Positions 2,862-58,065 of a stretch of DNA of 64,000 nt are shown here, in pieces (position 1 is the stretch's first letter; each line of letters begins with the position of its first letter). Origin of the DNA: Squalus acanthias. Its lineage: Eukaryota. The notes beneath the pieces were generated by a model, which worked only from the letters and a program-made list of their open reading frames with translations, was not told where the DNA came from and made no database searches. The stretch covers positions 72,292,001 to 72,356,000 of the forward strand of contig CM059435.1 in NCBI GenBank assembly GCA_030390025.1, written 5' to 3'. Position numbers and translations under genes: made by a program.

Positions 2862-5026
2862 TAATATGATAAGGCAGGATCTGGCCAAAGTGGATTGGGA
2901 TAAGCTACTTGTAGGAAAATCCACATCAGAGCAGTGGGCGTCTTTCAGAAAGGAAATAGAGAGAGTACAACGCCAACATGTTCCCGTAAAGGTCAAGGGT
3001 GGGACCAACAAGCCCAGGGAATCCTGAATGTCAAGGGGTATACAAGAATGTATTAGAAAAAAAAGGGAGGCTTTTGGCAGATACAAAGGACTAAAAACAG
3101 TGGAAGCCCTAGAGGAGTATAGAAAGTGCAGGGGGGTACTTAAAAAAGAAATTAGGAGAGCGAAGAGGGGGCATGAAAAAACACTGGCGGGCAAAATAAA
3201 GGAAAATCCCAAGGTGTTTTATAAGTATATTAAGGGCAAGAGGATAACCAGGTAAAGAGTAGGGCCCATTAGGGACCACAGTGGCAATCTGTGTGTAGAG
3301 CCGAAAGATGTGAGTGAGGTTTTAAATGAATATTTTGCATCTGTGTTCACTATGGAGAAGGGTGATGTAGGCATAGAAATCAGGCAGGGGGATTATGATA
3401 TACTTGGACAAATTAATACTGAGAGGGAGGAGGTACTAGCGGTTTTAGCGGGCTTAAAAGTGGATAAATCCCCAAGCCCAGACGAGGTGTATCCCAGGCT
3501 GCTGTGTGAGGCAAGGGAGGAGATTGCAGGGGCTCTGACGCAAATTTTCAGAACCTCTCTGGCCACAGGGGAGGTGCCAGAGGATTGGAGGACAGCTAAC
3601 ATAGTACCATTATTCAAGAAGGGTAGTAGGGATAAACCAGGGAATTACAGGCCAGTGAGCCTAACATCAGTGGTAGGGAAATTATTGGAAAAAATTCTGA
3701 GGGACAGAATTAGTCTCCACTTGGAGAGGCAAGGATTAATCAAGGATAGTCAGCATGGCTTTGTCAGGGGGAGATCATGTCTAACCAATTTGATTGAATT
3801 TTTCGAGGGGGTGACTAGGTGTGTGGATGAGGGTAGTGCAGTTGATGTGGTCTACATGGACTTCAGTAAGGCTTTTGACAAAGTCCCACATGGGAGACTG
3901 GTCAAAAAGGTAAGAGCCCATGTGATTCAGGGCAATTTGGCACATTGGATCCAAAATTGGCTTAGTGGCAGGAGGCAGAGGGTGATGGTCGAAGGTTGTT
4001 TTTGTGACTGGAAGCCTGTGTCCAGTGGTGTACCGCAGGGATCGGTGCTGGGTCCTTTGCTGTTTGTAGTGTACATTAATGATTTAGATATGAATGTAGG
4101 AGGTATGATCAGTAAGTTCGCAGATGACACAAAAATTGGTGGGGTGTTAAATAGCGAGGAGGGAAGCCTCAGGCTACAGGACGATATAGATGGGTTGGTC
4201 AGATGGGCAGAACAGGGCAAATGGAATTTAACCCTGAAAAGTGTGAGGTGATGCATTTTGGGAGGACTAACAAGGCAAGGGAATACACAATGAATGGTAG
4301 GACCCTAGGAAGGACAGAGGATCAGAGGGACCTTGGTGTGCATGTACATAGATCCCTGAAGGCAGCAGGACAGGTAGATAAGGTGGTTAAAAAGGCACAT
4401 GGGATACTTGCCTTCATTAGCCGAGGCATAGAATATAAGAGGAGGGAGGTTATGATGGAGCTGTATTAAACGTTAGTTAGGCCACAGCTGGAATACTGTG
4501 TGCAGTTCTGGTCGCCACACTATAGGAAGGATGTGATTGCATTGGAGAGGGTGCAGAGGAGATTCAACAGGATGTTACCTGGGCTGGAGCGCTTCAGCTA
4601 TGAAGAGAGACTGGACAGGCTGGGGTTGTTTTCCTTAGAGCAGAGAAGACTGAGGGGGGACCTGATTGAGGTGTACAAAATTATGAGGGGCATAGATAGG
4701 GTAGATAGAAAGGAACTTTTCCCCTTAGTAGAGGGGTCAATAACCAGGGGGCATAGTTTCAAGGTAAGGGGCAGGAGGGTTAGAGGGGATTTGAGGAAAA
4801 ACTTTTTCACCCAGAGGGTGGTTGGAATCTGGAACTCACTGCCTGAAAGAGGCAGGAACCCTCACAACATTCAAGAAGCATTTAGATGAGCACTTGAAAT
4901 GCCATAGCATACAAGGCTATGGACCAAGTGCTGGAAAATGGGATTGGAATAGATAGGGCTTGATGGCCGGCGCAGACACGATGGGCCGAAGGGCCTCTTT
5001 CTGTGCTGTATAAATCTATGACTCTA
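2862..5026 (+). mobile_element. CR1 LINE, 5'-truncated, disrupted ORF2 (RT)
   Basis: ORF pieces 3028-3255, 3310-4251 (PGNYRPVSLTS, GVPQGSVLGP, SKFADDTK), 4203-4469, 4500-4889; stop at 3253, frameshift near 4215; tctatgactctat tail; inserted in a SINE fragment (ggcagcccattt | ttgcacgcagc). Confidence 0.95.
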
Positions 5027-15889: not shown

Positions 15890-16979
15890 AGAAAACAACT
15901 CTCAGGCACCTTACAGAAAGATGGACAATGAGTAGAAGAAAAAACGGGAAGAGAAACTGGCCATGGGGGGAAACAAAAGCATGGTTGAAGAGAAGGGCAT
16001 TAAGGAAGCTTTTGAAAGCGGTGAGGAAGGTGGCATGATGGAGGGAGCTCCAGAGGACAGGGACAAAATGGCTGAGGTAATGGCCACCAGGCATGCAGTA
16101 GAGGCAGCGGGGAATGAAAAATAGGCCAGTGTTGGAGCAGCACAGACTGTATGCAAGGATGAGACAATTTACGAAGGGTTGAACATGATGATGAAAATCT
16201 TATTGATCTGTTGGGGTATAAGAAGCCAGTGAAACTTGGCAACCAAGAGGTTGTAGGCTGTGCCATTCTGGATAAGTTGTAGTTTGTGAAGGATGGAGGC
16301 GGGGAGGCCAGCAAAGGGAATAGTGGAGAACTCGAGCCATAAGATGATGAAGGCATAGACTAGGATTTCAACAGCGGTGGGGAAGATGTAGGGGCAGAAA
16401 TGGATAATGCTTTGGAGGTGGAAGAAAGCTCAGATCAGAGTTAAGTGAGATGCTGAAGTTTCACTCCTTGGGGCTGAGATTGAGATGGGAGACAGGGAGA
16501 TTGATGGCGGCCAGGGCAGAGGCACAAAGATGCTGGCAGGAGCCAAAAGATGCCTTTGATTTTCCTGACATTAGGTTGGAGGAAGTTGCAACTCATCCAG
16601 ATCTAATTTTAGGCAGGCAGTTGGAGAGGGTGCCAATACCAACAACAACTTGCACCAATAGAATCAATTGTGGAGGTCACAGGTAAAGCTGGGTGTTGCT
16701 GGCATATGGAACTGGGGCAGGAGAGGATCAAGGGAGCCAATGAAGGGGCTTCATGAATATGATCAAGGGGTGGGGGGTGGGGGGGGAGAAAAACTTTGGA
16801 TTGTGGGGAGGACATACAGGTGGGAGCTAGAGGGAAGGGGTGAGGCAGGGGTCAGAAGACACAGAGGCAGCTGTACTGATGACCTAGATTTTGGACATAA
16901 ATTAGTGCCTTAAGTCCTCACATATAATTCCTAAGGTGAGGATGGAAGTAGAGATGTAGGGAGATCAGAGGAAGGTGTG
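15890..16979 (-). mobile_element. Old L2 relic, continues 19312-~19420 beyond the CR1 insertion
   Basis: Purine-rich + strand matching the reverse complement of the L2 3' region (ggttgaagagaagggcattaaggaagcttttgaa; ttgcaactcatccag). Confidence 0.6.
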
Positions 16980-19073
16980 CGAGCGGAATTGAGTAGAGTA
17001 GATTGGGAAAATAGATTAAAGGGTAAGACGACACATGATCAGTGGTGTACATTCAAGGAGTTATTTTACAACTTCCAAAAAAAATATATTCCACTGAAAA
17101 GAAAAGGGTGTAAAAGAAAGGACAGTCATCCGTGGCTAAGTAAAGAAATTAAGGATAGTATTCGACTAAAAACAAGGGCATATAAGGTAGCGAAATCTAG
17201 TGGGAGGACAGAGGATTGGGAAAACTTTAAAAGGCAGCAAAAAATAACAAAAAGATTGATTAAGAAAGGGAAGATAGATTATGAAAGTAAATTAGCAAAA
17301 AATATAAAAACAGATAGTAAGAGTTTTTATAGTTATATAAAAAGAAAAAGGGTGGCTAAAGTAAATGTTGGTCCCTTAGAGGATGAGACCGGGAAATTAA
17401 TGGTGGGAAATATGGAGATGGCAAAAACACTGAATGAATATTTTGTATCAGTCTTTACAGTAGAGGACACTAAGAATATCCCAACACTGGACAAACAGGG
17501 GGCTATAGGGGGAGAGGAGCTAAACACGATCAAAATCACTAAGGAAGTGGTACTCGGTAAAATAATGGGACTCAAGGCGGATAAATCACCTGGACCTGAT
17601 GGCTTACATCCTAGAGTCTTGAAGGAAGTGGCGGTAGGGATTGTAGATGCATTGGTAATAATTTTTCAAAACTCCCTGGATTCCGCTAAGGTCCCGGCAG
17701 ACTGGAAAACTGCTAATGTAACACCCTTATTTAAAAAGGGCAGTAGACAGAAGGCTGGTAACTATAGACCGGTTAGCCTAACATCTGTGGTAGGTAAAAT
17801 TTTGGAGTCCATTATTAAGGAAACAGTAACAGGACATTTGGATAAGCATAATTTAATAGGACAAAGTCAGCATGGTTTTACGAAGGGGAAGTCATGTTTG
17901 ACAAATTTGCTGGAGTTCTTTGAGGAAGTAACATATAGAGTGGATAAAGGGGAACCAGTGGACGTAGTGTATTTAGACTTCCAAAAGGCATTTGACAAGG
18001 TGCCACACAAAAGATTATTGCTTAAGGTAAAAAATCACGGGATTGGGGGTAATATTCTGGCATGGATAGAGGATTGGCTATCTAACAGAAAGCAAAGAGT
18101 TGGGATAAATGGTTCATTCTCAGACTGGCAATCAGTAACTAGTGGTGTTCCACAGGGGTCAGTGCTGGGTCCCCAACTCTTCACAATCTATATTAACGAT
18201 TTGGAGGAAGGGACCAAGTGTAACATATCAAAATTTGCAGATGATACAAAGATGGGAGGGAAAGTAGTGAGTGAGGAGGACATAAAAAACCTGCAAGGGG
18301 ACATAGACAGGCTAAGTAAGTGGGCAGAGATTTGGCAGATGGAACACAACACTGGAAAGTGTGAGGTGATGCACTTTGGCAGGAAAAATCCTAGAGCAAT
18401 TTATTATCTTAATGGCAAGAAACTGGAGAGTACTGAAGTGCAAAGGGATCTGGGGGTCCTGGTGCACGAAACTCAAAAGGTTAGTATGCAGGTGCAGCAA
18501 GTGATTAAGAAGGCAAATGGAATGTTGGCTTTCATTGCTAGGGGGATAGAATATAAAAATAGGGAGGTATTGCTTCAGTTGTACAAGGTATTGGTGAGAC
18601 CGCACCTGGAATACTGCATACAGTTTTGGTGTCCTTACTTAAGGAAAGACATCCTTGCTCTCGAGGCAGTGCAAAAAAGGTTCACTCGGTTAATCCCGGG
18701 GATGAGGGGGTGGTCATATGAGGAGAGGTTGGGTAGATTGGGACTCTACTCATTGGAGTTCAGAAGAATGAGAGGCGATCTTATTGAAACATATAAGATT
18801 GTGAAGGGGTTGGATCGGGTGGATGCGGGGAGGATGTTCCCGATGACGGGTGAGACGAGAACTAGGGGACATAGTCTTAGAATAAGGGGCTGCTCTTTCA
18901 AAACTGAGATGAGGAGGAACTACTTCACTCAGAGGGTGGTAGGTCCATGGAATATGCTGCCACAAAAAGCTGTAGAAGCTACAACATTAATTAAATTTAA
19001 AACAGAAATAGACAGTTTCCTAGAAGTAAAGGGCATTAAGGGTTACGGGGAGCGGGCAGGAATTTGGACATGA
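16977..19073 (+). CDS. CR1 ORF2 fragment (reverse transcriptase and C-terminal domain), 698 codons, no true start
   Basis: KSPGPDGLHPRVLKE, GNYRPVSLTS, YLDFQKAFDKVPH, GVPQGSVLGP, SKFADDTK, RPHLEYC; the APE endonuclease is lost by truncation. Confidence 0.9.
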   Translation: MRAELSRVDWENRLKGKTTHDQWCTFKELFYNFQKKYIPLKRKGCKRKDSHPWLSKEIKDSIRLKTRAYKVAKSSGRTEDWENFKRQQKITKRLIKKGKIDYESKLAKNIKTDSKSFYSYIKRKRVAKVNVGPLEDETGKLMVGNMEMAKTLNEYFVSVFTVEDTKNIPTLDKQGAIGGEELNTIKITKEVVLGKIMGLKADKSPGPDGLHPRVLKEVAVGIVDALVIIFQNSLDSAKVPADWKTANVTPLFKKGSRQKAGNYRPVSLTSVVGKILESIIKETVTGHLDKHNLIGQSQHGFTKGKSCLTNLLEFFEEVTYRVDKGEPVDVVYLDFQKAFDKVPHKRLLLKVKNHGIGGNILAWIEDWLSNRKQRVGINGSFSDWQSVTSGVPQGSVLGPQLFTIYINDLEEGTKCNISKFADDTKMGGKVVSEEDIKNLQGDIDRLSKWAEIWQMEHNTGKCEVMHFGRKNPRAIYYLNGKKLESTEVQRDLGVLVHETQKVSMQVQQVIKKANGMLAFIARGIEYKNREVLLQLYKVLVRPHLEYCIQFWCPYLRKDILALEAVQKRFTRLIPGMRGWSYEERLGRLGLYSLEFRRMRGDLIETYKIVKGLDRVDAGRMFPMTGETRTRGHSLRIRGCSFKTEMRRNYFTQRVVGPWNMLPQKAVEATTLIKFKTEIDSFLEVKGIKGYGERAGIWT

Positions 19074-23872: not shown

Positions 23873-25637
23873 AATAGAAACATAGAAGATAGGAGCAGGA
23901 GTAGGCCATTCGGCCCCTCAAGCCTGTTCCGCCATTTAATGAGATCATGGCTGATCATCCAAATTCAGTACCCTGTCCCTGCTTTCTCCCCATATCCCTT
24001 GATCCCTTTAGCCTTAAGAAATATATCTAACTCCTTCTTGAATATATTTAATGAATTGGCCTCAACTGCCTTCTGTGGTAGAGAATTCCACAGGTTCACC
24101 ACTCTCTGGGTGAAGAAATTCCTCCTCATCTCAGTCCTAAATGGCTTACCCCTTATCCTTAGACTGTGACCCCTGGTTCTGGACTCCCCCGCCATCGGGA
24201 ACATCCTTCCTGCATCTAGTCTGTCTAGTCCTGTTAGAATTTTATAAGTTTCAATGAGATCCCCTCTCATTCTTCTAAACTCTAGCGAATATAAGCCTAA
24301 TCGACCCAATCTCTCTTCATACGTCATTCCTGCCATCCCCGGTATCAGTCTGGTGAATCTTCGCTGCACTCCCTCCATGGCAAGAACATCCTTCCTCAGA
24401 TAAGGCGACCAAAACTGCACACAATTCTCAAGGTGTGGTCTCACCAAGGCCCTGTACAACTGCAGCAAGACATCCTTGCTCCTGTACTCGAATCCTCTCG
24501 CTATGAAGGCCAACATACCATTTGCCTTCTTAACTGCCTGCTGCACCTGCATGCTTACCTTCAGCGACTGGTGCACAAAGACACCCAGGTCTCGTTGCAC
24601 ATCCCCTTTTCCCAATCTATTGCTGTTCAGATAATAATCTGCCTTCCTGTTTTTGCCACCAAAGTGGATAACCTCGTATTTATCCACATTATACAGCATC
24701 TGCCATGTATCTGCCCAATCACCCAACTTGTCCAAATCATAGTGGAGTTTCTCTGCATCCTCCTCACAGCACACACGCCCACCCAGCTTTGTGTCGTCTG
24801 CAAACTTGGAGATATTACATCTAGTTCCCTCTTCTAGATCATTAATATATATTGTGAATAGCTGGGGTCCTAGCACCGATCCCTGCGGTACCCCACTAGT
24901 CACTGCCTGCCACTCGGAAAAAGACCCGTTTATTCCAACTCTTTGCTTCCTGTCTGCCAACCAGTTCTCTATCCAAGTCAGTACCTTACCCCCAATCCCA
25001 TGTGCTTTAACTTTGCACGCTAATCTCTTATGCAGGACCTTATCGAAAGCCTTCTGAAAGTCCAAATACACCACATCCACTGGTTCTCCCTTATCTATTC
25101 TACCAGTTACATCCTCAAAAAATTCCAGTAGATTAGTCAAGCATGATTTACCTTTAGTAAATCCCTGTTGACTTTGTCCGATCCTGTCACTGTTTTCCAA
25201 ATGCTCTGCTATTACATCTTTTATAATGGACTCTAGCATTTTACACTACCCATGTCCGGCTTACCGGTCTATAATTCCCCATTTTCTCTCTACCACCTTT
25301 TTTAAATAGTGGGGTTACATTAGCTATCCTCCAATCCATGGGAACTGTTCAAGACTCTATAGAATTTTGGAAGATGATCAACAATGCATCTACTATTTCT
25401 AGGGCCACTTCCTTAAGTACCCTAGGATGTAGATTATCAGGCCCTGGGGATTTATCGGCCTTCAATCCCGTCAATTTCCCTAACACCATTTCCCTACAAA
25501 TACTGATTTCATTCAGTTCCTCCCTTTCATTAGACCCTATGTTCCCCGACATCTCTGGGAGGTTATTTGTGTCCTCCTTTGTGAAGACAGAACCAAAGTA
25601 TGTATTTAATTGGTCTGCCATTTCTTTGTTCCCCATT
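23873..25637 (-). mobile_element. CR1 LINE, 5'-truncated, near-intact RT
   Basis: ORF 23965-25239 (424 aa, SKFADDTK) plus upstream frame 25349-25637 (KSPGPDNLHPRVLKE); lesion near 25245; tail atagaaacatagaa on +. Confidence 0.95.
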
Positions 25638-35469: not shown

Positions 35470-37846
35470 TGCCCATCCCTAATTGCCCTTGAGAAGGTGG
35501 TGGTAAGTCGCCTTCTTGAACCGCTGCAGTCCGTGTGGTGAAGGTAGGGAGGGAGTTCCAGGATTTTATCCAGCGACGATGAAGGAACGGCGATATATTT
35601 CCAAGTCAGGATGGTGTGTGACTTGGAGGGGAACTTGGAGGTGGTGGTGTTCCCATGCGCCTGCTGCCCTTGTCCTTCTAGGTGGAAGAGGTCGCGGGTT
35701 TGGGAGGTGCTGCCAAAGAAGCCTTGCCGAGTTGCTGCAGTGTATCTTGTAGATGGTACACACTACAGCCATGGTACGGAGTGAATGTTTAAGGTGGTGG
35801 ATGGGGTGCCAATCAAGCGGGCTGCTTTGTCCTGGATGGTGTCGAGCTTCTTGAGTGTTGTTGGAGCTGCACTCATCCAGGCAAGTGGAGAGTATTCCAT
35901 CACACTCCTTACTTGTCTCTTGTAGATGGTGGAAAGGCTTTGGGGAGTCAGGTAGGTGAGACACTCACTTGTTGACCTGCTCTTGTTGCCACAGTATTTA
36001 TGTGGCTGGTCCAGTTAAGTTTCTGGTCAATGGTGACCCCCAGGATGTTGATGGTGGGGGATTCGGCGATGGCAATGTCGTTGAATGTCAAGGGGCGGTG
36101 GTTAGACTCTTGCTTGTTGGAGATAGTCATTGCCTGGCACTTCTGTGGTGCGAATGTTACCTGCCACTTATCAGCCCAAGCCTGAACGTCATCCAGGTCT
36201 TGTTGCATGCGGGCATGGACTGCTTCATTATCTGAGGAGTTGTGAATGGCACTGAACACTGTGCAGTCATCAGCGAACATCCCCATTTCTGACCTTATGT
36301 TGGAGGGAAGGTCATTGATGAAGCAGCTGAAGATAGTTGGGCCTAGGACACTGCCCTGAGGAACTCCTGCAGCGATGTCCTGGGGCTGTGATGATTGATC
36401 TCCAACAACCACAACCATCTTCCTTTGTGCTAGGTATGACTCCAGCCACTGGAGAGCTTTCCCCCCATTTCCCATTGACTTCAGTTTTACTAGGGCTCCT
36501 TGATGCCACACTCGGTCAAATGCTGCCTTGATGTCAAGGGCAGTCACTCTCACCTCACCTCTGGAATTCAGCTCCTTTGTCCATGTTTGGACCAAGGCTG
36601 TAATGAGGTCGGGAACCGAGTTGTCTTGGTGGAACCCAAACTGGGAATCAGTGAGCAGGTTATTGGTGAGTAAGTGCCGTTTGATAGCACTGTTGATGCC
36701 ACCTTCCATCACTTTGCTGATGATTCAGAGTAGACTGATGGGGCGGTAATTGGCTGGATTGGATTTGTCCTGCTTTTTGTGGACAGGACATACCTGAGCA
36801 GTTTTCCACATTGTCGGGTAGATGCCAGTGTTGTAGCTGTACTGGAACTGCTTGGCTAGAGGCGCGGCTAGTTCTGGTGCACAAATCTTCAGCACGATAG
36901 CCGGGATGTTGTCGGGGCCCATAGCCTTTGCTGTATCCAGTGCGCTCAGCTGTTTCTTGATATCACGTGGAGTGAATTGAATTGGCTGAAGATTGGCTTC
37001 TGTGATGGTGGCGACCTCAGGAGTAGGCCGATATGGATCATCCACTCGGCACTCCTGGCTGAAGATGGTTGCAAATGCTTCAGCCTTGTCTTTTGCACTC
37101 ACGTGCTGGGCTCCACCATCATTGAGGATGGGGATATTCATGGAGCCTCCTCCTCCCGTTAGTTGTTTAATGGTCCACCACCATTCACCACTGGATGTGG
37201 CAGGACTGCAGAGCTATGATCTGATCCGTTGATTGTGGGATCGCTTAGCCCTGTCTATAGTATGCTGCTTCTGCTTTTTAGCATGCATGTAGTCCTGTGT
37301 TGCAGCTTCCCCAGGTTGGTACCTCATTTTTAGGTACGCCTGGTGCTGCTCCTGGCATGCTCTTCTACATTCCTTATTGAACCAGGGTTGGTCCCCTGGC
37401 TTGATGGTAATGGTAGAGTGAGGGATATGCCGGGCCATGAGGTTACAGATTGTGGTGGAATACATTTCTGCTGCTGCTGATGGCCCACAGCGCCTCATAG
37501 ATGCCCAGTTTTGAGCAGCTAGATCTGTTCTGAATCTATCCCATTTAGCACGGTGGTAGTGCCACACAACACGATGGAGGGTGTCCTCAGTGTGAAGACG
37601 GGACTTTGACTGTGCGGTGGTCACTGCTACCAATACTGTCATGGACAGATGCATCTGCGATGGGTAGATTGGTGAGGACGAGGTCAAGTAGGTTTTTCCC
37701 TCGTGTTGGTGCTCTCACTACCTGTCGCAGGCCCAGACTGGCTGCTTTGTCCTTCAGGACTCGGCCAGCTCAGTCAGTAGTGGTGCTACCGAGCCACTCT
37801 TGGTGATGGACATTGAAGTCCCCCACCCAGAGTACATTCTGTGCCC
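35470..37846 (-). mobile_element. LINE family B, 2.4 kb (APE endonuclease C-terminus and RT), disrupted
   Basis: WVGDFNVHHQEWLGS (APE), KAMGPDNIP, NPANYRPISLL, LDIKAAFDRVWH, GVPQGSVLGP, MFADDCT; same family as 5393-6342. Confidence 0.95.
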
Positions 37847-47012: not shown

Positions 47013-48549
47013 AAACTTTCTCTGCTATCTTGTTGGAGAAAGGAAGTAAGCAAAACTTCTTGAAGTCTTACTGATGCCTTCTTAAGACTGTACTGCATTG
47101 GTACCTGCTTCCCCAGCGGTTTGTCTTTGTGTGCTGCTTTGGGAGGTCATATGGGTATTATGTAGGTATACTTCTTTAACAGCTCCTGGAGGAGAAGGAG
47201 GAGGCTCACAAGAGGCATATCAGACAGGGGCAGTTGCACTTTAGACGGTCAATGAGGACTTGTCATTAAGTTGTTATCCATATGTACAGGACCAGGCTAT
47301 TGCACCTGGACATGTCCAAAGAAAACGTATGCTTCAACTATCAGGAAATAGTCCAGTATCAGATGTTACAATTTTACTTAATAGGTGTGTTCAGTGTGCC
47401 TTGCCCCAGTATTTCCCCTTAGTGAAAGTCTACATTGTGTGTCTTGTACTTCCTAACAGCTTCTAAATGTTTCCCCAGTTGATGAAGGAACTGAGGTAGA
47501 TAGCTATTGTCAGTTTCTCTCACTAAGGATGAAGGTATCTCCTTGTGTTGAATCAATATACTGTATGACTCTTTAACTACAGGAGCCATGGGGATTGATG
47601 AAGTGGCTGCCTCGGCCTGCATGCCATGTTACACATTGGTAGTTATTTTAGTGGGGTGGCTGGGAGTTATGGGATGTGACGTTGACCTGAGAGACATCTC
47701 CATAATCTGGGCCAGCTCCTGCCATTCCTCTCCTGCTGGACACTACCTCAGCACAGCTAGTGATCTGTGTGAGAATAGACAAGGTTGTTGAAGTGCTGTC
47801 TCAATTCGATTCCCCAACATGGGGAATCCAGACAAGATGAGCTGCTGCAGATTGGAGCCCAAGGCCTGTAGAGCCCCAGTCATAGTATTCATGGCAGTAG
47901 TTATGCCTGAGCTTAAGAGCTCAGCTAAGGAGACATTGCTGCAGAGGGTGTGGGAGAGGCTATGTTCCCCATCATGGTCTGTAGTTAGGTCAGGCAGCGC
48001 TGCCTAGATCTGGGTTGTGGACTCCTCCATTGATGTCCCCAAACAGTACAGGCTGCACACTCTCAAATGACACCATGACGCGTTGATCCAAACTGCATTT
48101 GTAGGCCGGCCGTGTTGGGTCCACTCCCTGAGCTCAGCAGCTGAAGGAGCCTCAAGATGACCCTCTGGCTAACAGTTGTATCACCAGCACCTGCTCTTCA
48201 GCACTTGTGCTCTGTGCTTCACCAAATATTCCCTCCTTAAACTGACTGAGAGACTGGACATGCTCATGCTGCTGTATGAATGGTTGATGCAGGGTGCTTG
48301 TAGCTGCCTGGTCATGACTCATCAGAAGACATCAACAGCACCGCCTCTTGAGAAAAAGTGAACAGCATATTTTAAAATGCTAGCAGTAAGTCACTCCTTG
48401 AAACATAACTTCACATGATGAGCCAATGTGTTAGGCTGCAATGTATGCCTGTGTGTGAGGGAGTGAATTAGTAGATAAGGAATAAAAAGCAATGGATCCC
48501 AGCCACAAGTTCCCTCTATTGTCTTCACAGCCAGAATTTCTATGGCCCT

Positions 48550-48743
48550 TGTGGTAACACAATACAGCTTCCTGTGACTCGAACTTTATTGCATCACTTC
48601 CTGTGATTAGTCCAGGATAAATACTGGACTGATCAGTTGGATCCTGGAGAGGCATAGAGTAAGACCTCTTTTGTATGTAGCACCTTTTTAGTTGATTAAA
48701 GCTTACTTTAAGTTCACCACGCGTAAGGCTCATTCTTATGACA
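48550..48743 (+). repeat. 5' LTR
   Basis: tgtggtaacac...cttatgaca; differs from the 3' LTR at only 2 positions. Confidence 0.97.
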
Positions 48744-48744
48744 A

Positions 48745-48755
48745 TTTAATCAACT
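48745..48755 (+). other. Non-tRNA primer-binding site candidate (self-complementary to the LTR)
   Basis: tttaatcaact is the exact reverse complement of agttgattaaa at 48690-48700; no TGG follows the LTR directly. Confidence 0.6.
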
Positions 48756-48821: not shown

Positions 48822-51254
48822 ATGGAAAACATCCTTAAACCATCGCGTCTTGACTTGGACCCAAACACCCCAGCAGCCGGTAAGGTGTGGAAACACTGGT
48901 ATCGCACGTTTGACAATTTTCTTGAATATTGCAAGGCTGATGATGACTCAAAGTTGTGGATACTCATCAACTGTGTCACCCCGAATGTATTTCAGTATGT
49001 GGAGGAATGGGGCAGTTACGAGGAGGCAATTCGGACGCTTAAGAGACTATATACTAAGACACCGAATGAGGTCTATGCCAGACATCTACTAGCTACAGCC
49101 CAACAAGGGCCGGAGGAATCCATTGATAAATTCCTCCAAGAGCTTCGCAGACTTAGTATGGACTGTAACTTTCAGGCGGCCTCAGCTGAGCTGTACCGTG
49201 AAGAAATGATCCGTGATGCTTTCATCTGCGGGCTTGCCTCCCCATTTATACGCCAGCGTCTACTGGAAAGTAAGACACTTGAGCTTCAGAGAGCTTATGA
49301 CATGGCTTGCTCTCTAGATCTGGCAAAAAGAAATGCAGACCTTTATACAGTGCCCAGACCTCGGTCTACTGCCTTAACTACAGTCAGGCAATTTAAGAGG
49401 CCACAGGTGAACTCTATTAGGGAGGACTTTATCCCTGATGATCAATCTGATGACTTCACTGATGAAGAGGATGATGACCCCACTGTGGCAGCCTCTTGGC
49501 AATCTAAGAAATGCTTCTTTTGTGGTGATGAGTTTCACCCTCGGAAATTCTGTCCTGCTCGCAATGCGTTTTGCAGTCATTGCAACAAAAAGGGTCATTT
49601 TGCAAAGGTTTGCCTATCAAGAGCCTCTACGAGGGCTTATCAAGCTAAGTCCTACCGAACTGTAAGGGCCTATCAAGATGTTCCAGCTAAAATCTATCGT
49701 GCTTCCTCTCGGGTTTCCTCTCGAAGAAACACACCTAGAGTTTCAGCCACTCTTTGTGCAACGACACCAATTACAGCTGCTTGTCCTCAGAACCTATTCC
49801 ATGCAGCTACGAAAGCATCAATTAATGGACATACTTTAGATGCCTTAATTGACTCAGGTAGCACTGATAGTTTCATTAGGGAACAGATTGTTGCAGAGTT
49901 AAAGCTACATGTTTTCCCATCGGACCAGGCAGTTGCGATGGCTCAGTCATCACTTAATACCAGAATTTCTGGCTTTTGTATGGTTGAAATAACACTTAAT
50001 GGTCACAGGTATCCCTCCACCCAGCTTTCGGTGCTCAAGGACTTATGTAGTGATCTTATCTTAGGGCTGGATTTTCAAAAGCAGCATAAGAAGCTCACCA
50101 TTGAGTTCGGCGGATCCAAACCTGAACTCACTATTTCTAATATACTACCTCGATTACCGTTCTGTGCATTGTCAGCAGCTTCACTGGATGAACCCTCACT
50201 GTTTACCAGTATCCCTCCTCGATGCAAACCGATTATAACAAAGTCACGACGTTTCAGTCAGGAAGACCAGTCTTTTATTGCGGCTGAGATTTCTCGGCTT
50301 TTAGCAGAGGATATCATCGAGCCTTGTTCGTCGCCATGGCGCGCCCAGGTCGTTATTGTTAAGAACCCTCTACAACCTCACAAGAAACGGCTGTGCATTG
50401 ACTATTCACAGACCATCAATCAATATACGGACTTGGACGCATACCCATTGCCGCGCATCGATGATATGGTTAATAAACTGGCTGAGTACACGGTGTTCTC
50501 AACATATGATCTGAAAAGTGCCTATCATCAGGTACCCTTGAAGGTCTCAGACAAGCAGTATACGGCCTTTGAAGCCAATGGACGGCTGTATCAATTTCGT
50601 CGCCTCCCCTTTGGGGTCACTAATGGAGTGGCTGTCTTCCAGCGAGCAATGGATGACCTGGTCAAACAGGAAGACTTGAAGGATACGTTTCCTTATCTGG
50701 ACAATATTACTGTCGCAGGTCGCAATCAGCGGGAACATGACGCCAATCTCCAACGATTTTGGGATGCACTCCAGCACCGTAATTTGACATTAAATGCGGC
50801 TAAATCCATTGAGTCACAACCAACCATCAACATCCTTGGCTATTGTGTGGGCAATGGCATCATTAAACCTGACCCTGAAAGGCTTCGCCCACTCCAAGAA
50901 CTCCCGCCACCTAAGAATCCGGCCTCCTTGCGCCGGGCCCTCGGCCTGTTTGCATACTATGCTAAATGGATTCCTAACTTCTCGGACCGAATCCAACCTC
51001 TACTGAAGGCCAGCACATTCCCACTAGACACAGCAGCTGTTGCAGCCTTTAACCTCCTGAAAAAACAGTTGGAGAAAGCGGCTCTTCACTCCATCGATGA
51101 GAGTCTTCCTTTTGTTGTTGAGTGTGATGCCTCGGAGGTGGCGATCTCGGCCACTCTGAATCAGGAAGGTCGTCCGGTGGCATTTTTGTCAGGACTTTTC
51201 AAGGGGCTGAGCTACATTATCCTCCAGTCGAGAAAGAAGCTACAGCCATCATAG
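48822..51254 (+). CDS. Gag-Pol N-terminal part (Gag, two CCHC knuckles, protease, RT, start of RNase H)
   Basis: CFFCGDEFHPRKFC and CSHCNKKGHFAKVC; LIDSGS protease; RLCIDY, YDLKSAYHQ, LPFGV, PYLDN; VECDASE. Goes out of frame near 51190. Confidence 0.95.
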   Translation: MENILKPSRLDLDPNTPAAGKVWKHWYRTFDNFLEYCKADDDSKLWILINCVTPNVFQYVEEWGSYEEAIRTLKRLYTKTPNEVYARHLLATAQQGPEESIDKFLQELRRLSMDCNFQAASAELYREEMIRDAFICGLASPFIRQRLLESKTLELQRAYDMACSLDLAKRNADLYTVPRPRSTALTTVRQFKRPQVNSIREDFIPDDQSDDFTDEEDDDPTVAASWQSKKCFFCGDEFHPRKFCPARNAFCSHCNKKGHFAKVCLSRASTRAYQAKSYRTVRAYQDVPAKIYRASSRVSSRRNTPRVSATLCATTPITAACPQNLFHAATKASINGHTLDALIDSGSTDSFIREQIVAELKLHVFPSDQAVAMAQSSLNTRISGFCMVEITLNGHRYPSTQLSVLKDLCSDLILGLDFQKQHKKLTIEFGGSKPELTISNILPRLPFCALSAASLDEPSLFTSIPPRCKPIITKSRRFSQEDQSFIAAEISRLLAEDIIEPCSSPWRAQVVIVKNPLQPHKKRLCIDYSQTINQYTDLDAYPLPRIDDMVNKLAEYTVFSTYDLKSAYHQVPLKVSDKQYTAFEANGRLYQFRRLPFGVTNGVAVFQRAMDDLVKQEDLKDTFPYLDNITVAGRNQREHDANLQRFWDALQHRNLTLNAAKSIESQPTINILGYCVGNGIIKPDPERLRPLQELPPPKNPASLRRALGLFAYYAKWIPNFSDRIQPLLKASTFPLDTAAVAAFNLLKKQLEKAALHSIDESLPFVVECDASEVAISATLNQEGRPVAFLSGLFKGLSYIILQSRKKLQPS

Positions 51255-52771
51255 AGGCAGTACGGAAGTGGAGTCATCTCCTAGCTCGCCAGCACTTTAC
51301 CTTAATCACGGACCAGCGATCGGTCGCCTTCATGCTCGATAATCGAAAACGGACCAAAATTAAAAATAATAAAATCCAGCTTTGGCGGCTGGAATTGGCC
51401 TCTTTTGGTTACACCATCCACTATCGACCTGGCAAGGAGAATGTGGCTCCGGATACCCTCACACGAGCATTCTGCTCCGCCATGGCACCCTCTACGCTCG
51501 TAGACATCCATGATGGGTTGTGTCATCTGGGCGTTACTCGCATGCTACACTTCGTGCGGTCCCGAAATCTCCCATTCACTACCGGGGATGTAAAGAAGAT
51601 GTGCTCGGACTGCAGAGTCTGTGCGGAATTGAAACCTCGGTTTTTCCGCCCCTCGGGTGGTATACTCATACATGCGACCCAGCCAATGCAACGGCTTAGC
51701 ATCGATTTTAAGGGGCCGTTGCCCTCTTCAACTCGCAACACTTATCTATTGACCATGGTCGATGAGTATTCCCGTTTTCCGTTTGCCTTTCCCTGCCCCA
51801 ATATGCTGACAACCACGGTTATCAGCTGCCTTGAGCAGGTATTTGCTTTCTGTGGCATGGCATCCTATGTTCATTCGGATCGGGGCCCTTCTTTTATGTC
51901 AGGAGAACTCAAGGCCTATCTCTCGGAACGGGGTATTGCTGCCAGCAAAACGACGCCTTATCATCCGGTCGGGAATGGGCAAGTCGAGCGTTTTAACGCT
52001 ATCATCTGGAATGCAGTACGTCTGGCTTTGAGATCTCGGGGCCTACCCAACCAGCAATGGGAAGCAGTACTTCCAGACGCATTACACTCCACACGGTCCC
52101 TCCTTTCGACCGCCACAAATACGACGCCTCATGAACGGTTCTTCCGATTTCAGCGTCGCTCATCCTATGGGATATCTCTCCCGTCGTGGCTGACTGCACC
52201 GGGACCAGTGCTACTCCGAAGATATGTCCGGGCGTCTAAGAATGACCCCCTGGTAGATGAGGTTGAGCTCACTGACGTCAACCCTACCTACGCCTATATT
52301 CGGTATCCTGACGGTCGGGAATCTACCGTGTCATTGCGGGATCTGGCTCCCTGCCCGCCGAAACATAGAGGGACACCAGGGGATGATATTGTACCAGGCA
52401 CATCTCTGGGCTCGCCAGGTGCCTCTCATCACGATCTGGATCTGACACCGGCTGGTACCTCACTCCAGCGTGCCGACCTGGGGCAAACTGACTATGAGCC
52501 CGTCGGGGCTCGCACGCGCAGCCACGATCCACCCCGTACCGTACGCTCGGAAACGGATCTGCCACAGCCCTGCCCGACACCCGTTCGGGCACCAGTACAC
52601 AGTCAGGATCGTCCTGACCCCTCACAGAGCGGGCTGGATCACTCGGACTCTGGTCCACGGCCCGCGGCGGGTAAACGGGCTAGGGGCCCTCTACCGCTAC
52701 GAGAACCCAAACGGGTGCGGCTCTCCCTCGTCCAGCGGCTACGAAATGGAGGGAGCATCCCGGCCTCCTAA
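51191..52771 (+). CDS. Pol C-terminal part (RNase H and integrase), separated by a 1-nt deletion
   Basis: Frame reads RTFQGAELHYPPVEKEATAIIEAVRKW...TDQRS into ORF 51332-52771; HHCC (HDGLCH...CRVC); D,D,E at SIDFKG, HSDRG, VERFN. Confidence 0.93.
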   Translation, partial: RTFQGAELHYPPVEKEATAIIEAVRKWSHLLARQHFTLITDQRSVAFMLDNRKRTKIKNNKIQLWRLELASFGYTIHYRPGKENVAPDTLTRAFCSAMAPSTLVDIHDGLCHLGVTRMLHFVRSRNLPFTTGDVKKMCSDCRVCAELKPRFFRPSGGILIHATQPMQRLSIDFKGPLPSSTRNTYLLTMVDEYSRFPFAFPCPNMLTTTVISCLEQVFAFCGMASYVHSDRGPSFMSGELKAYLSERGIAASKTTPYHPVGNGQVERFNAIIWNAVRLALRSRGLPNQQWEAVLPDALHSTRSLLSTATNTTPHERFFRFQRRSSYGISLPSWLTAPGPVLLRRYVRASKNDPLVDEVELTDVNPTYAYIRYPDGRESTVSLRDLAPCPPKHRGTPGDDIVPGTSLGSPGASHHDLDLTPAGTSLQRADLGQTDYEPVGARTRSHDPPRTVRSETDLPQPCPTPVRAPVHSQDRPDPSQSGLDHSDSGPRPAAGKRARGPLPLREPKRVRLSLVQRLRNGGSIPAS

Positions 52772-52777
52772 TCTTTT

Positions 52778-52789
52778 GGGGGGGGAGAA
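52778..52789 (+). other. Polypurine tract
   Basis: GGGGGGGGAGAA abutting the 3' LTR, preceded by TTTT. Confidence 0.9.
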
Positions 52790-52983
52790 TGTGGTAACAC
52801 AATACAGCTTCCTGTGACTCGAACTTTATTGCATCACTTCCTGTGATTAGTCCAGGATAAATACTGGACTGATCAGTTGGATCCTGGAGAGGCATAGAGT
52901 AAGACCTCTTTTGTATGTAGCACCTTTTTAGTTGATTAAAGCTTACTTTAAGTTCACCACGTGTAAGGCTCATTCTTACGACA
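52790..52983 (+). repeat. 3' LTR
   Basis: tgtggtaacac...cttacgaca. Confidence 0.97.
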
Positions 52984-53387
52984 GCCCTCTTCTCATAAGG
53001 AGTCAACGATCCACATATGCTGTCTCTGGTTATGCACAAATGTCCCCTGCAAGCAGGTATAATGGGGAAATATGTTGGAATGAAGAATATGAGAGAAGAT
53101 ACCCAAATGCCCAAGCCACCAACCACCTTTATGTGAGCCTGTGAACATGGCACGTTCAGGTACCCTGTGCTGGCATCATACATGGAACTTGTTACTTGCC
53201 ACATTTAAAGGTATGGGAACATTATACAGTGTCCTGGTACAATGTGAGCATGCCTGCACATTTGGAATTACGTGAACAGTTGGCACAATACAGAGTGTTG
53301 TTGCTCTGTGTGATGTTGCATTGAGTTTAGGGTGAAGGGAAGTTAGGGTGAATTGTAAGCTACCATTATCCACATGTCAGCACACTT

Positions 53388-55699: not shown

Positions 55700-56005
55700 G
55701 ATCCAGGCATTTATATAGCATTATCACAGCTCTCCAGCATCTGAATGCATTTTACCTACAATTAATTATTTTGCAAACCAGTGACTATTGGTATGTAGGC
55801 AAATGTGGCAGCCATTTTGTGCACCACAAGATCCCACAAATGGCAATGAGATGAATGATGAGTTAATCTGTTTTTGGTGATGTTGGTAGAGGGAAGAATA
55901 TTGGGAAGGGCACCAGGAGAACTCGCTGCTCTTCAAATAGTGCTGTGGGATCTTCAGTATCTACCTGAGCTGGCAGGGCCTCTGTTTAGCAATTCATCAG
56001 ATTAC
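55700..56005 (-). mobile_element. Deu-type SINE, degenerate
   Basis: gcatttatatagc...ggcagccattttgtgcac...gctcttcaaatagtgc.gtgggatctt. Confidence 0.7.
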
Positions 56006-56091
56006 ACCAATGCAATCCTGCTTTTCAAATATTTGCCTTTGAACATTTGATGTGTTTGTTAAGGAATTTCAGACAGAGATTTAACAGAAGC

Positions 56092-56750
56092 GGCTGTGGC
56101 TCAGTAATAGCTCTCTCGCCTCTGAGTCAGAAGGTTATGGGTTTAAGTTCCCCTCCAGAGACTTGAGCAGATAATCCAGGCTGATACTCCAGTGCAGTAC
56201 CATGGGAGTGCTGCATTTTGGAAGTGCCGTCTTTCAGATGAGATGAAAGGCCCCATCTGCCCTCTCAGGTGGACATAACAGATTTCATGGCACTATTTGC
56301 AGGAGAGTTCTCCCCGGTGTCCTGGCCAATATTTATCCCTCAACCAAAATCATTGAACAGATTATCTGGTCATTTATTTCATTGCACTTTATGGGAAATA
56401 GTGCCGTGGGAACTTTTACGTCCGCCTGAGAGGGTAGACGGGGCCTTGGTTTAACATCTCATCTGAAAGACGGGTCTCAGTTTGACGTCTCCTCTGAAAG
56501 ACGGCACCTCCAACAATGCAGCACTTCCTCAGTACTGCACTGGAGTGTCAGCCTAGATTTTGTGCTGAAGTCCTGCAGTGGGACTTGATCCCACAGCCTT
56601 CTGACTCAGAGGCGAGAGGCATATTTCTGTGTGCAAATTGGTTGCTGCATTTTCTACATGACAAGTGACTACTCTTCAAAAATACTTCATTGGTTGTAAA
56701 GCGCTTTAGGATATCCTGAGGTCATGAAAAACGTTATATAAATCTTTCAT
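56092..56750 (+). mobile_element. Deu-type SINE containing an inverted copy of the same family (56396-56618)
   Basis: Head and core 56092-56395 on +, antisense head/core 56396-56618, 3' tail resumes at ~56625. Confidence 0.8.
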
Positions 56751-57524
56751 AGAGTCATAAGTCATAGAGTCATAACGGCACAGAAGGAGGCCATTCAGCC
56801 CATTGAGTCCGTGCCGGCATCTTTCAGATTGAAAAGAAACAGGTTAATACAAAATAAGGGACAAAGGAATTTTACATGGACACATTAGAGCCAATTCTGC
56901 ACTCTCGCGCTTCCAGCGAGGAGGTGCTCATGGGAAATTGCGGTTGTGCAGCCTGTGATATTTTCATCCATGAAATCAATTTTGATTCTACCTTTTATTC
57001 AGCTAGAATGTTAGTGGGTAATTTCTGTCTTTGCAGGCAATGAGTGGTACTGGGAAGATTGCACTGAAACACTATTCTTTTCTCTTTAGAAATGAAACAT
57101 GAGTGAGCTAAAAAAAAATACTGGTTATTTATTTATATGAAACTGCATTGCATCCATTCTCAGTAGGAGCTATTTGATGAAAATACTGCCGAGGCTTTAG
57201 TTTCAAGTTTCTGTTCCCCTAAACATGGGAAAGCAATTGTTATATAGCTGATGTAATTAAAAGTAAAGGAGCAATATTGGCCACCTGGCATTAACAATTC
57301 TTCCCAAAGAACATGATTGGTGGAGAAATTCTGCTGAGTATCGTTACAGACTGACAAAAGCAAACACTGTTTATGTTCAGCATTGAAAAATGTTCACAGG
57401 GAAGATTTAGCAAAATTGGGAGTGCATTTATCAAACCCACAGTATGCTCTCGCTGCATCAAGACGATAGAGAATATATTCTCACTTGTCTTGTAGCAAAA
57501 GGGAAATTCTCGTGAGTGAAATCA

Positions 57525-57690
57525 AGAGCAGATGGTAACCTTCAAAAGAGAGTTGGATATATACTTGAAAAGGAAATATTTGCAGGGCTATGGGGCAAGA
57601 GTCGGGGGGGGGGGGGCGGTGCAGTGGGACTACTTGGACAGCTCTTTCAAAGAGTTGGCACAGGACAATGGGTGATTGTCTTCCTTCTCT
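57525..57690 (+). mobile_element. CR1 3' fragment
   Basis: ttcaaaagagagttggatatatacttgaaa...gctctttcaaagag.tggcacagg. Confidence 0.7.
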
Positions 57691-57691
57691 A

Positions 57692-58065
57692 CTGTGGCCC
57701 AGTGGTAGCTCTCTTGCCTCTGAGTCAGAAAGTTGTGGGTTCAAGCCCCACTCCAGGACTTCAGCACATAAATTTAGGCTGACACATCAGTGCAGTACTG
57801 AGGGAGTGCTGCACTGTTGGAGGTGCAATCTTTCAGATGAGATGTCAAACTGAGGCCCCGTAAAAGATCCCAGGACACTATTTTGAAGAAGAGCAGGGGA
57901 GTTCTCCCCGGTGCCCTGGCCAATATTTATCCCTCAACCAACATTGCCTACATGTACTACGTTACAACAGTGACTACACTTCAAACGTACTTCATTGTCT
58001 ATAAAGCGCTTTGGGACATCCTGAGGTTGCGAAAGGCGCTATATAAAGGCAAGTCTTTCTTTTTC
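57692..58065 (+). mobile_element. Near full-length tRNA-headed Deu-type SINE
   Basis: gtggcccagtggtagc...ggttcaagcccc head, Deu core, L2-like end aaaggcgctatataaa plus (tctt)n. Confidence 0.85.

Follow-up and report, generated by a model that had tools for sequence, protein, structure and literature searches.

Covarying pairing between primer binding site and LTR points to self-primed reverse transcription in a chromodomain-less Ty3/Gypsy lineage

The window, by which we mean the whole 64,000-nucleotide stretch of Squalus acanthias DNA that was analysed, contains a complete Ty3/Gypsy LTR retrotransposon (Table 1). Its TG...CA LTRs, target-site duplication (TSD), polypurine tract and pol domain order (PR-RT-RH-IN) define it as such. 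A domain scan of the element returned no chromodomain match, in agreement with the sequence-only reading, which had seen no evident chromodomain. The six-residue spacing between the two zinc knuckles, which starts with PA, is the commonest arrangement among 140 related proteins. An Rfam search at the LTR gave no real match. Elsewhere in the window (3256-4248, 16935-19070, 23968-25245, 35951-36724; 55900-58000) lie open frames resembling LINE fragments, a type assigned by eye, together with SINE-like dispersed repeats.

Table 1. Features of the retrotransposon, in coordinates of the window
Feature	Position	Strand	Remarks
Left target-site duplication GCCCT	48545..48549	+	5-bp TSD
5' LTR, 194 bp, TG...CA	48550..48743	+	2 differences from 3' LTR
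12-bp hairpin with 8-nt loop formed by TATA-like GATAAATA (48616-48623)	48604..48635	+	
11-mer AGTTGATTAAA, complementary to the PBS, inferred self-primer; ATTAAA at 48695-48700	48690..48700	+	
1-nt spacer A between LTR end and PBS	48744	+	A in 21/24 families
PBS position TTTAATCAACT, without TGG, exact complement of 48690-48700	48745..48755	+	
gag, protease, RT and start of RNase H	48822..51254	+	frameshift within RNase H in the window copy
Two CCHC zinc knuckles, 6 residues between	49512..49613	+	read from sequence
RT catalytic motif YLDN in place of YXDD	50694..50705	+	
Remaining RNase H and integrase; no chromodomain or SH3_Tf2-1 match	51128..52771	+	
Polypurine tract	52778..52789	+	
3' LTR; second 11-mer at 52930-52940, no PBS behind it	52790..52983	+	
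Right target-site duplication GCCCT	52984..52988	+	

The terminal CA of the 5' LTR is followed by a single spacer base and then, where TGG would open a tRNA-type primer binding site (PBS), by TTTAATCAACT, which occurs only once in the window. Its exact complement, AGTTGATTAAA, is found twice, once in each LTR, and the polarity of the pairing is right for the 3' end of the 5' LTR segment to be extended into U5. The sequence-only reading had described this arrangement, and everything it stated about the sequence was confirmed. A perfect 11-nt complement in a 194-bp LTR has a chance expectation of about 1e-4, given the base composition. In folds that start upstream of the helix, the first ten pairs have probabilities of 0.83-1.0 and the terminal pair 0.44. 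A scan of the LTR for AATAAA and ATTAAA bore out the further statement that the ATTAAA within the 11-mer is the only such poly(A)-signal hexamer, and the TATA-like box, placed by that reading about 70 nt before the primer segment, begins 74 nt upstream of it.

The family to which the element belongs is young and abundant in its own genome. A search at the DNA level gave 860 candidates, of which the 40 that were scored are approximately 100% identical, and all 150 scored Gag matches reach 99-100% identity, many of them within open frames of about 1320 codons. Both the PBS and the LTR segment are intact in 30/30 fetched copies. A sister subfamily, represented by 800 LTR matches, has many LTR differences to either side of the 11-mer and none inside it; the same PBS follows 16/16 of its 5' LTRs. 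Among the first 100 of these 800 matches, a search for one type of LTR chimera between the two subfamilies found none. The TATA-like GATAAATA sits exactly in the loop of the hairpin listed in Table 1, and a similar hairpin is present in the sister subfamily. Within the family itself, the one position probed yielded 10 LTR and 4 PBS variants, none of them compensated, and one element carries a change in both LTRs with its PBS unchanged, as expected of a first-generation copy.

Evidence for maintained pairing comes from comparison across families. The pairing spans 13 and 12 nt in two further families of the same genome, where position 12 shows a compensated change, and the LTRs of these families align locally to the window LTR only over 22-28 nt around the 11-mer. 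More distant relatives, where named, come from soft coral, crustaceans, a tunicate, a nematode, catsharks and a stingray; a scan of viral contigs for relatives found none. Of 80 metagenome loci collected, 45 had no usable Gag start, leaving 35 readable loci. A perfect complement of 11-18 nt lies just behind a CA in 26 of these, whereas the longest match in 740 shuffles was 10 nt. The nine non-matching loci, read by eye, comprise five near-matches (one mismatch, wobble, deletion or decayed LTR end), L092 with pairing in a shifted register, L111 without the LTR piece, and L082 and L083, which have TGG and no 3' LTR. In several loci (L049, L055, L058, L062, L067 and L071) the LTR ends were set by repeat and TSD alone, and pairing still extends over 13-17 nt; the match is therefore no artefact of how the ends were chosen. 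L055 and L058 differ by one change, which affects the 5' LTR piece and the PBS alike.

A stricter comparison, in which the register was held fixed, used 24 family representatives (3 own-genome and 21 metagenome). Twelve near-duplicates as well as L082 and L083 were dropped, and several of the remaining representatives are related to one another. All 11 pairs form in 20/24 representatives and 10/11 in three, whereas L092 fails; counting L082 as a miss gives 20/25, and these proportions are biased toward well-paired copies because representatives were chosen after the results were known. The 24 representatives contain 19 distinct PBS sequences, and when each PBS was set against the LTR piece of another family with a differing PBS, complete pairing was reached in 0/536 combinations and 10/11 in 46/536. 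In an alignment of 13 representatives, 143/143 cells are paired, with double changes at 7 of the 11 pairs; slid registers pair only 20-54%. The covariation score of this alignment was attained by 0/500 shuffles, a control that ignores relatedness. The sequence-only reading had named compensatory changes between PBS and LTR in homologous elements as a check on its proposal, and the covariation found across families lends strong support to tRNA-independent self-priming in a Gypsy element without a chromodomain. RT identity among the representatives is 40-94% (median 55%), and self-paired elements are spread over the whole of an RT tree that is unrooted and has no outgroup.

Two sets of loci show individual departures from this pattern. 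In the family of L061, L062, L069 and L099, PBS position 14 is mismatched to the LTR in three of the four members and matched in L061, a hint that templating may not be strict once the pairing exceeds about 13 nt. In the decayed L082 and L083, at about 375-400, CA is followed by A, by TGG and then by an apparent remnant of a self-complementary PBS, and no 3' LTR was found; the TGG possibly marks a switch to a tRNA-type site, or is only the Gag start codon.

The paired segment has a conserved frame. Within its 11-nt core, position 1 is A in 20/24 families and position 2 is G in 23/24, and positions 9-11 are A in 22-23 of the 24; one exception is L046, whose core ends in AGA and is paired to TCT. 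Directly behind the core stands G or A in 23/24 families, followed by C in 22/24. The distance from the start of the core to the LTR end ranges from 31 to 78 nt. Pairing also continues upstream of the core, by a mean of 2.9 nt compared with 0.55 nt in cross-family controls. The 11-mer itself includes a canonical poly(A) hexamer in 12/24 families; three of the other 12 have one further downstream.

Three things are observed directly: the pairing, the covariation that goes with it and a constant register, in which CA is followed by one spacer base and 11 pairs. From these we infer a cut and a primer. The 11-nt LTR piece that pairs with the PBS probably serves as the primer itself, following a predicted cut behind its final AAA. 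Read across the families, the pairing is a genuine, lineage-wide signature of tRNA-independent priming, most likely of self-priming, and the Gypsy lineage concerned falls outside the group for which self-priming is established. About three quarters of our confidence in self-priming goes to a route in which the 5' copy of the segment would fold back onto the PBS over the 31-78-nt span. By analogy with Tf1, a cut just behind the last A (48700), probably made by the element's RNase H, would free a 3'-OH, and from the new 3' end minus-strand synthesis would start one base away from the LTR end. RT would then copy the spacer, U5 and the short part of R behind the cut before transferring to the 3' end of the RNA; the R that remains for strand transfer would be the stretch of 10-30 nt from the cut to the poly(A) site. 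During plus-strand synthesis the primer would in turn be copied, and the PBS thereby rewritten from the LTR, which would explain the lasting match between the two; the parallel change in L055 and L058 fits such rewriting. Several observations stand against self-priming: L092 fails in the fixed register, L082 and L083 have TGG behind the LTR end, the variants at the position probed within the family are uncompensated, the additional duplexes that Tf1 requires do not exceed cross-family controls, and the 11-mer resembles a tRNA D-loop with whose GG most of the PBS could form wobble pairs.

The remainder of the confidence in self-priming belongs to an unlikely but appreciable variant, in which the same 11-mer primes but derives from the 3' copy of R or from a second packaged RNA, the 5' R staying whole. 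An identical 11-mer is indeed present in the 3' LTR, and the variant would suit the absence of the additional duplexes that Tf1 requires (discussed below). A long leader on the primer would be avoided only if that copy were also cut on its 5' side. Against it, the cis helix is highly probable in the folds of most of 23 families, and cutting the 3' R would presumably remove that molecule's own strand-transfer acceptor.

Other readings deny the LTR segment the role of primer. The full 3' end of a tRNA is ruled out, as it requires the TGG that is missing here. A host tRNA fragment from the D-loop region could instead prime through G-U wobble, with the LTR copy merely shielding the PBS, a reading that we regard as improbable. 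The best host tRNA matches do fall at tRNA position 14, in the D-loop, and C or T stands opposite the D-loop GG positions in 17/24 PBS. For the other 7/24, however, pairing with GG is impossible; the 19 different PBS sequences are each matched by Watson-Crick pairs to their own LTR; and the best tRNA duplex reaches -3.4 kcal/mol compared with -9.8 kcal/mol for the self pair. The best host match covers 9/11 positions with wobble, in an incomplete set of 46 tRNA genes of which 41 are Lys or Cys. The 11-mer with the following GC (48690-48702) has what we take to be a resemblance to a tRNA D-loop, presumably a close one in the case of tRNA-Ile; the likeness may reflect an origin from a piece of tRNA or a coincidence with the poly(A) motif. 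A primer built by splicing, as in BEL/Pao, was rejected, since the pairing is contiguous in the DNA and extends upstream of the AG, and since the nearest GT...AG span measures only 33 nt.

It is about equally hard to credit that the helix is only regulatory, hiding the poly(A) signal of the 5' LTR or acting in packaging, while something else primes. ATTAAA is the sole canonical signal of the window LTR, only the 5' copy has a PBS to pair with, and half of the families carry a hexamer within the 11-mer. The other half, however, have a paired piece without a canonical signal, so masking cannot account for the pairing in general. In addition, a masking helix would have no need of a register fixed one base away from the LTR end, and no alternative primer site is present at the PBS position. 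Under self-priming, the helix would hide the 5' ATTAAA and leave free the 3' copy, behind which no PBS stands; masking is thus a plausible bonus in half of the families. The sequence-only reading's suggestion that the duplex masks the 5' signal accordingly holds as a possibility for the window element and does not extend to the families that lack the hexamer in the 11-mer. Chance complementarity, finally, is scarcely credible. The segments are AT-rich and 46/536 cross-family pairs reach 10/11, but the low expectation in the LTR, the shuffle controls and the lack of any complete match among the cross pairs all contradict it, and the covariation refutes it.

The sequence-only reading had the primer appear internal to R, which is a candidate reading rather than an observation. 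Where the RNA begins relative to the primer is about evenly balanced between a start at most a few bases from the 11-mer, as in Tf1, and one 40-60 nt earlier. In favour of a start at the core or close to it are the initiator-like AG with which the 11-mer begins, the lack of a TATA-like box in 17/24 families and the upper limit of 18 nt on the pairing; such a start would also suit plus-strand synthesis, which presumably has to end at the PBS. Only 7/24 families have a TATA-like box 64-114 nt upstream. These include all three own-genome families, in which the box stands 74-92 nt upstream and none is found at 25-35 nt; this placement, together with the pairing upstream of the AG, favours a primer internal to the RNA. 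The mean extension of the pairing upstream suggests that the RNA probably starts somewhat before the AG. When genomic copies beginning at the 11-mer were sought, the sole hit was an LTR that has lost 30 nt internally, and the contigs examined revealed no transcript start, poly(A) end or joint.

The best-characterised self-primers belong to the Tf1/sushi group of chromoviruses. In Tf1, according to the passages cited, the RNA's initial 11 bases pair with the PBS, RNase H cleavage falls between bases 11 and 12 (PMC7175516; PMC10085805), and two additional duplexes forming a pretzel are required (PMC10085805). The literature at hand describes self-priming for Tf1/sushi chromoviruses and predicts it for plant Tcn1 and TAR (PMC6317226, PMC10085805, PMC4600332). 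The present lineage shares with Tf1/Tf2 of S. pombe, Tj1, Tosmo and Tf1/sushi the Ty3/Gypsy affiliation, an LTR-complementary PBS, an 11-nt core and the lack of a tRNA site. In contrast to that group, it has no chromodomain, SH3_Tf2-1 match or pretzel helices, its pairing often exceeds 11 nt, its RT carries YXDN, and its hosts are invertebrates and cartilaginous fish. No chromodomain was found in 21 long relatives scanned or in the precomputed domains of the 120 relatives listed. In a crude energy test for the two pretzel duplexes, own sequences gave -4.4 and -5.8 kcal/mol compared with -4.1 and -5.8 kcal/mol in cross-family controls, and the own duplex ranked best in 1/23 families for each. 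The lineage would work like Tf1 but is probably not Tf1/sushi, given that neither a chromodomain nor pretzel helices above controls were found. As chromovirus references from the same genome, a search by DUF4939 found nothing, and the 20 of 33 SH3_Tf2-1 hits that were retrieved were rejected, since their RTs, where present, are only 22-26% identical and look retrovirus-like. Several retrovirus-like RT matches in this genome (L189-L193, L195, L204 and L208), some of them near LTR pairs, are unrelated to self-priming.

Comparable inferences have been made outside animals. For plants, self-priming has been assigned, in the text cited, to LTR-complementary stretches of at least 10 nt that begin 0-5 bp behind the LTR (PMC6317226). 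The Tcn1 clade (Gypsy) and TAR, Houba and Osr-1 (Copia) are self-primers predicted from the same kind of evidence as is presented here, and they differ in being plant lineages, Tcn1 with a chromodomain. That TAR is a Copia element means that the trait can arise outside chromoviruses. The Conserved Hairpin Site of fungal GalEa Copia elements and bivalve TRIMs likewise lacks a tRNA PBS, and a self-complementary replacement is proposed for it (PMC6934838); its hairpin lies inside the internal region, whereas in the window element one arm lies in the LTR.

As for taxonomic position, the lineage presumably resembles the Cigr-1 clade or Mag in being compact, with short LTRs, two CCHC knuckles and marine hosts, and the two knuckles we assume to be compatible with the Mag lineage. 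Placement in either is a guess from this resemblance. Cigr is reported from tunicates, molluscs and annelids.

In the literature as far as it was covered, self-primed reverse transcription in animals has been tied to Tf1/sushi chromoviruses, and the search yielded no report of it in a non-chromovirus animal Gypsy lineage; Repbase, GyDB or Butler 2001 might record one. A second, very successful lineage would imply either a further origin of the trait or a greater age than has been assumed, with a bearing on which of the two, tRNA priming or self-priming, is the older. Elements of this kind would be independent of host tRNA and likely beyond control by tRNA fragments at the PBS, and annotation based on the PBS would overlook them. 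The conserved frame gives an exact predicted cut site, which makes the mechanism directly testable. A wider and distinctly tentative picture, which we consider possible rather than probable, is that of an animal-wide, chromodomain-less Gypsy lineage in which self-priming evolved independently of Tf1/sushi. Its primer would be cut from inside R, or from the far end of the RNA, at the conserved AG...AAA/(G,A)CC frame and without a pretzel; the helix would mask the 5' poly(A) signal in half of the families; and an RT with YXDN would drive bursts of hundreds to thousands of copies.

The RT motif is itself unusual. YXDN replaces YXDD in 96/120 related proteins and in the highly amplified window family, and a literature search for 'YLDN' found no paper. 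In Ty1, the same change is described in the text cited as keeping polymerase activity and stopping transposition, and partial suppressors of it lie in RNase H (PMC2148107). Three self-pairing families have an RT with YLDD, so YXDN and self-pairing are not strictly tied to each other.
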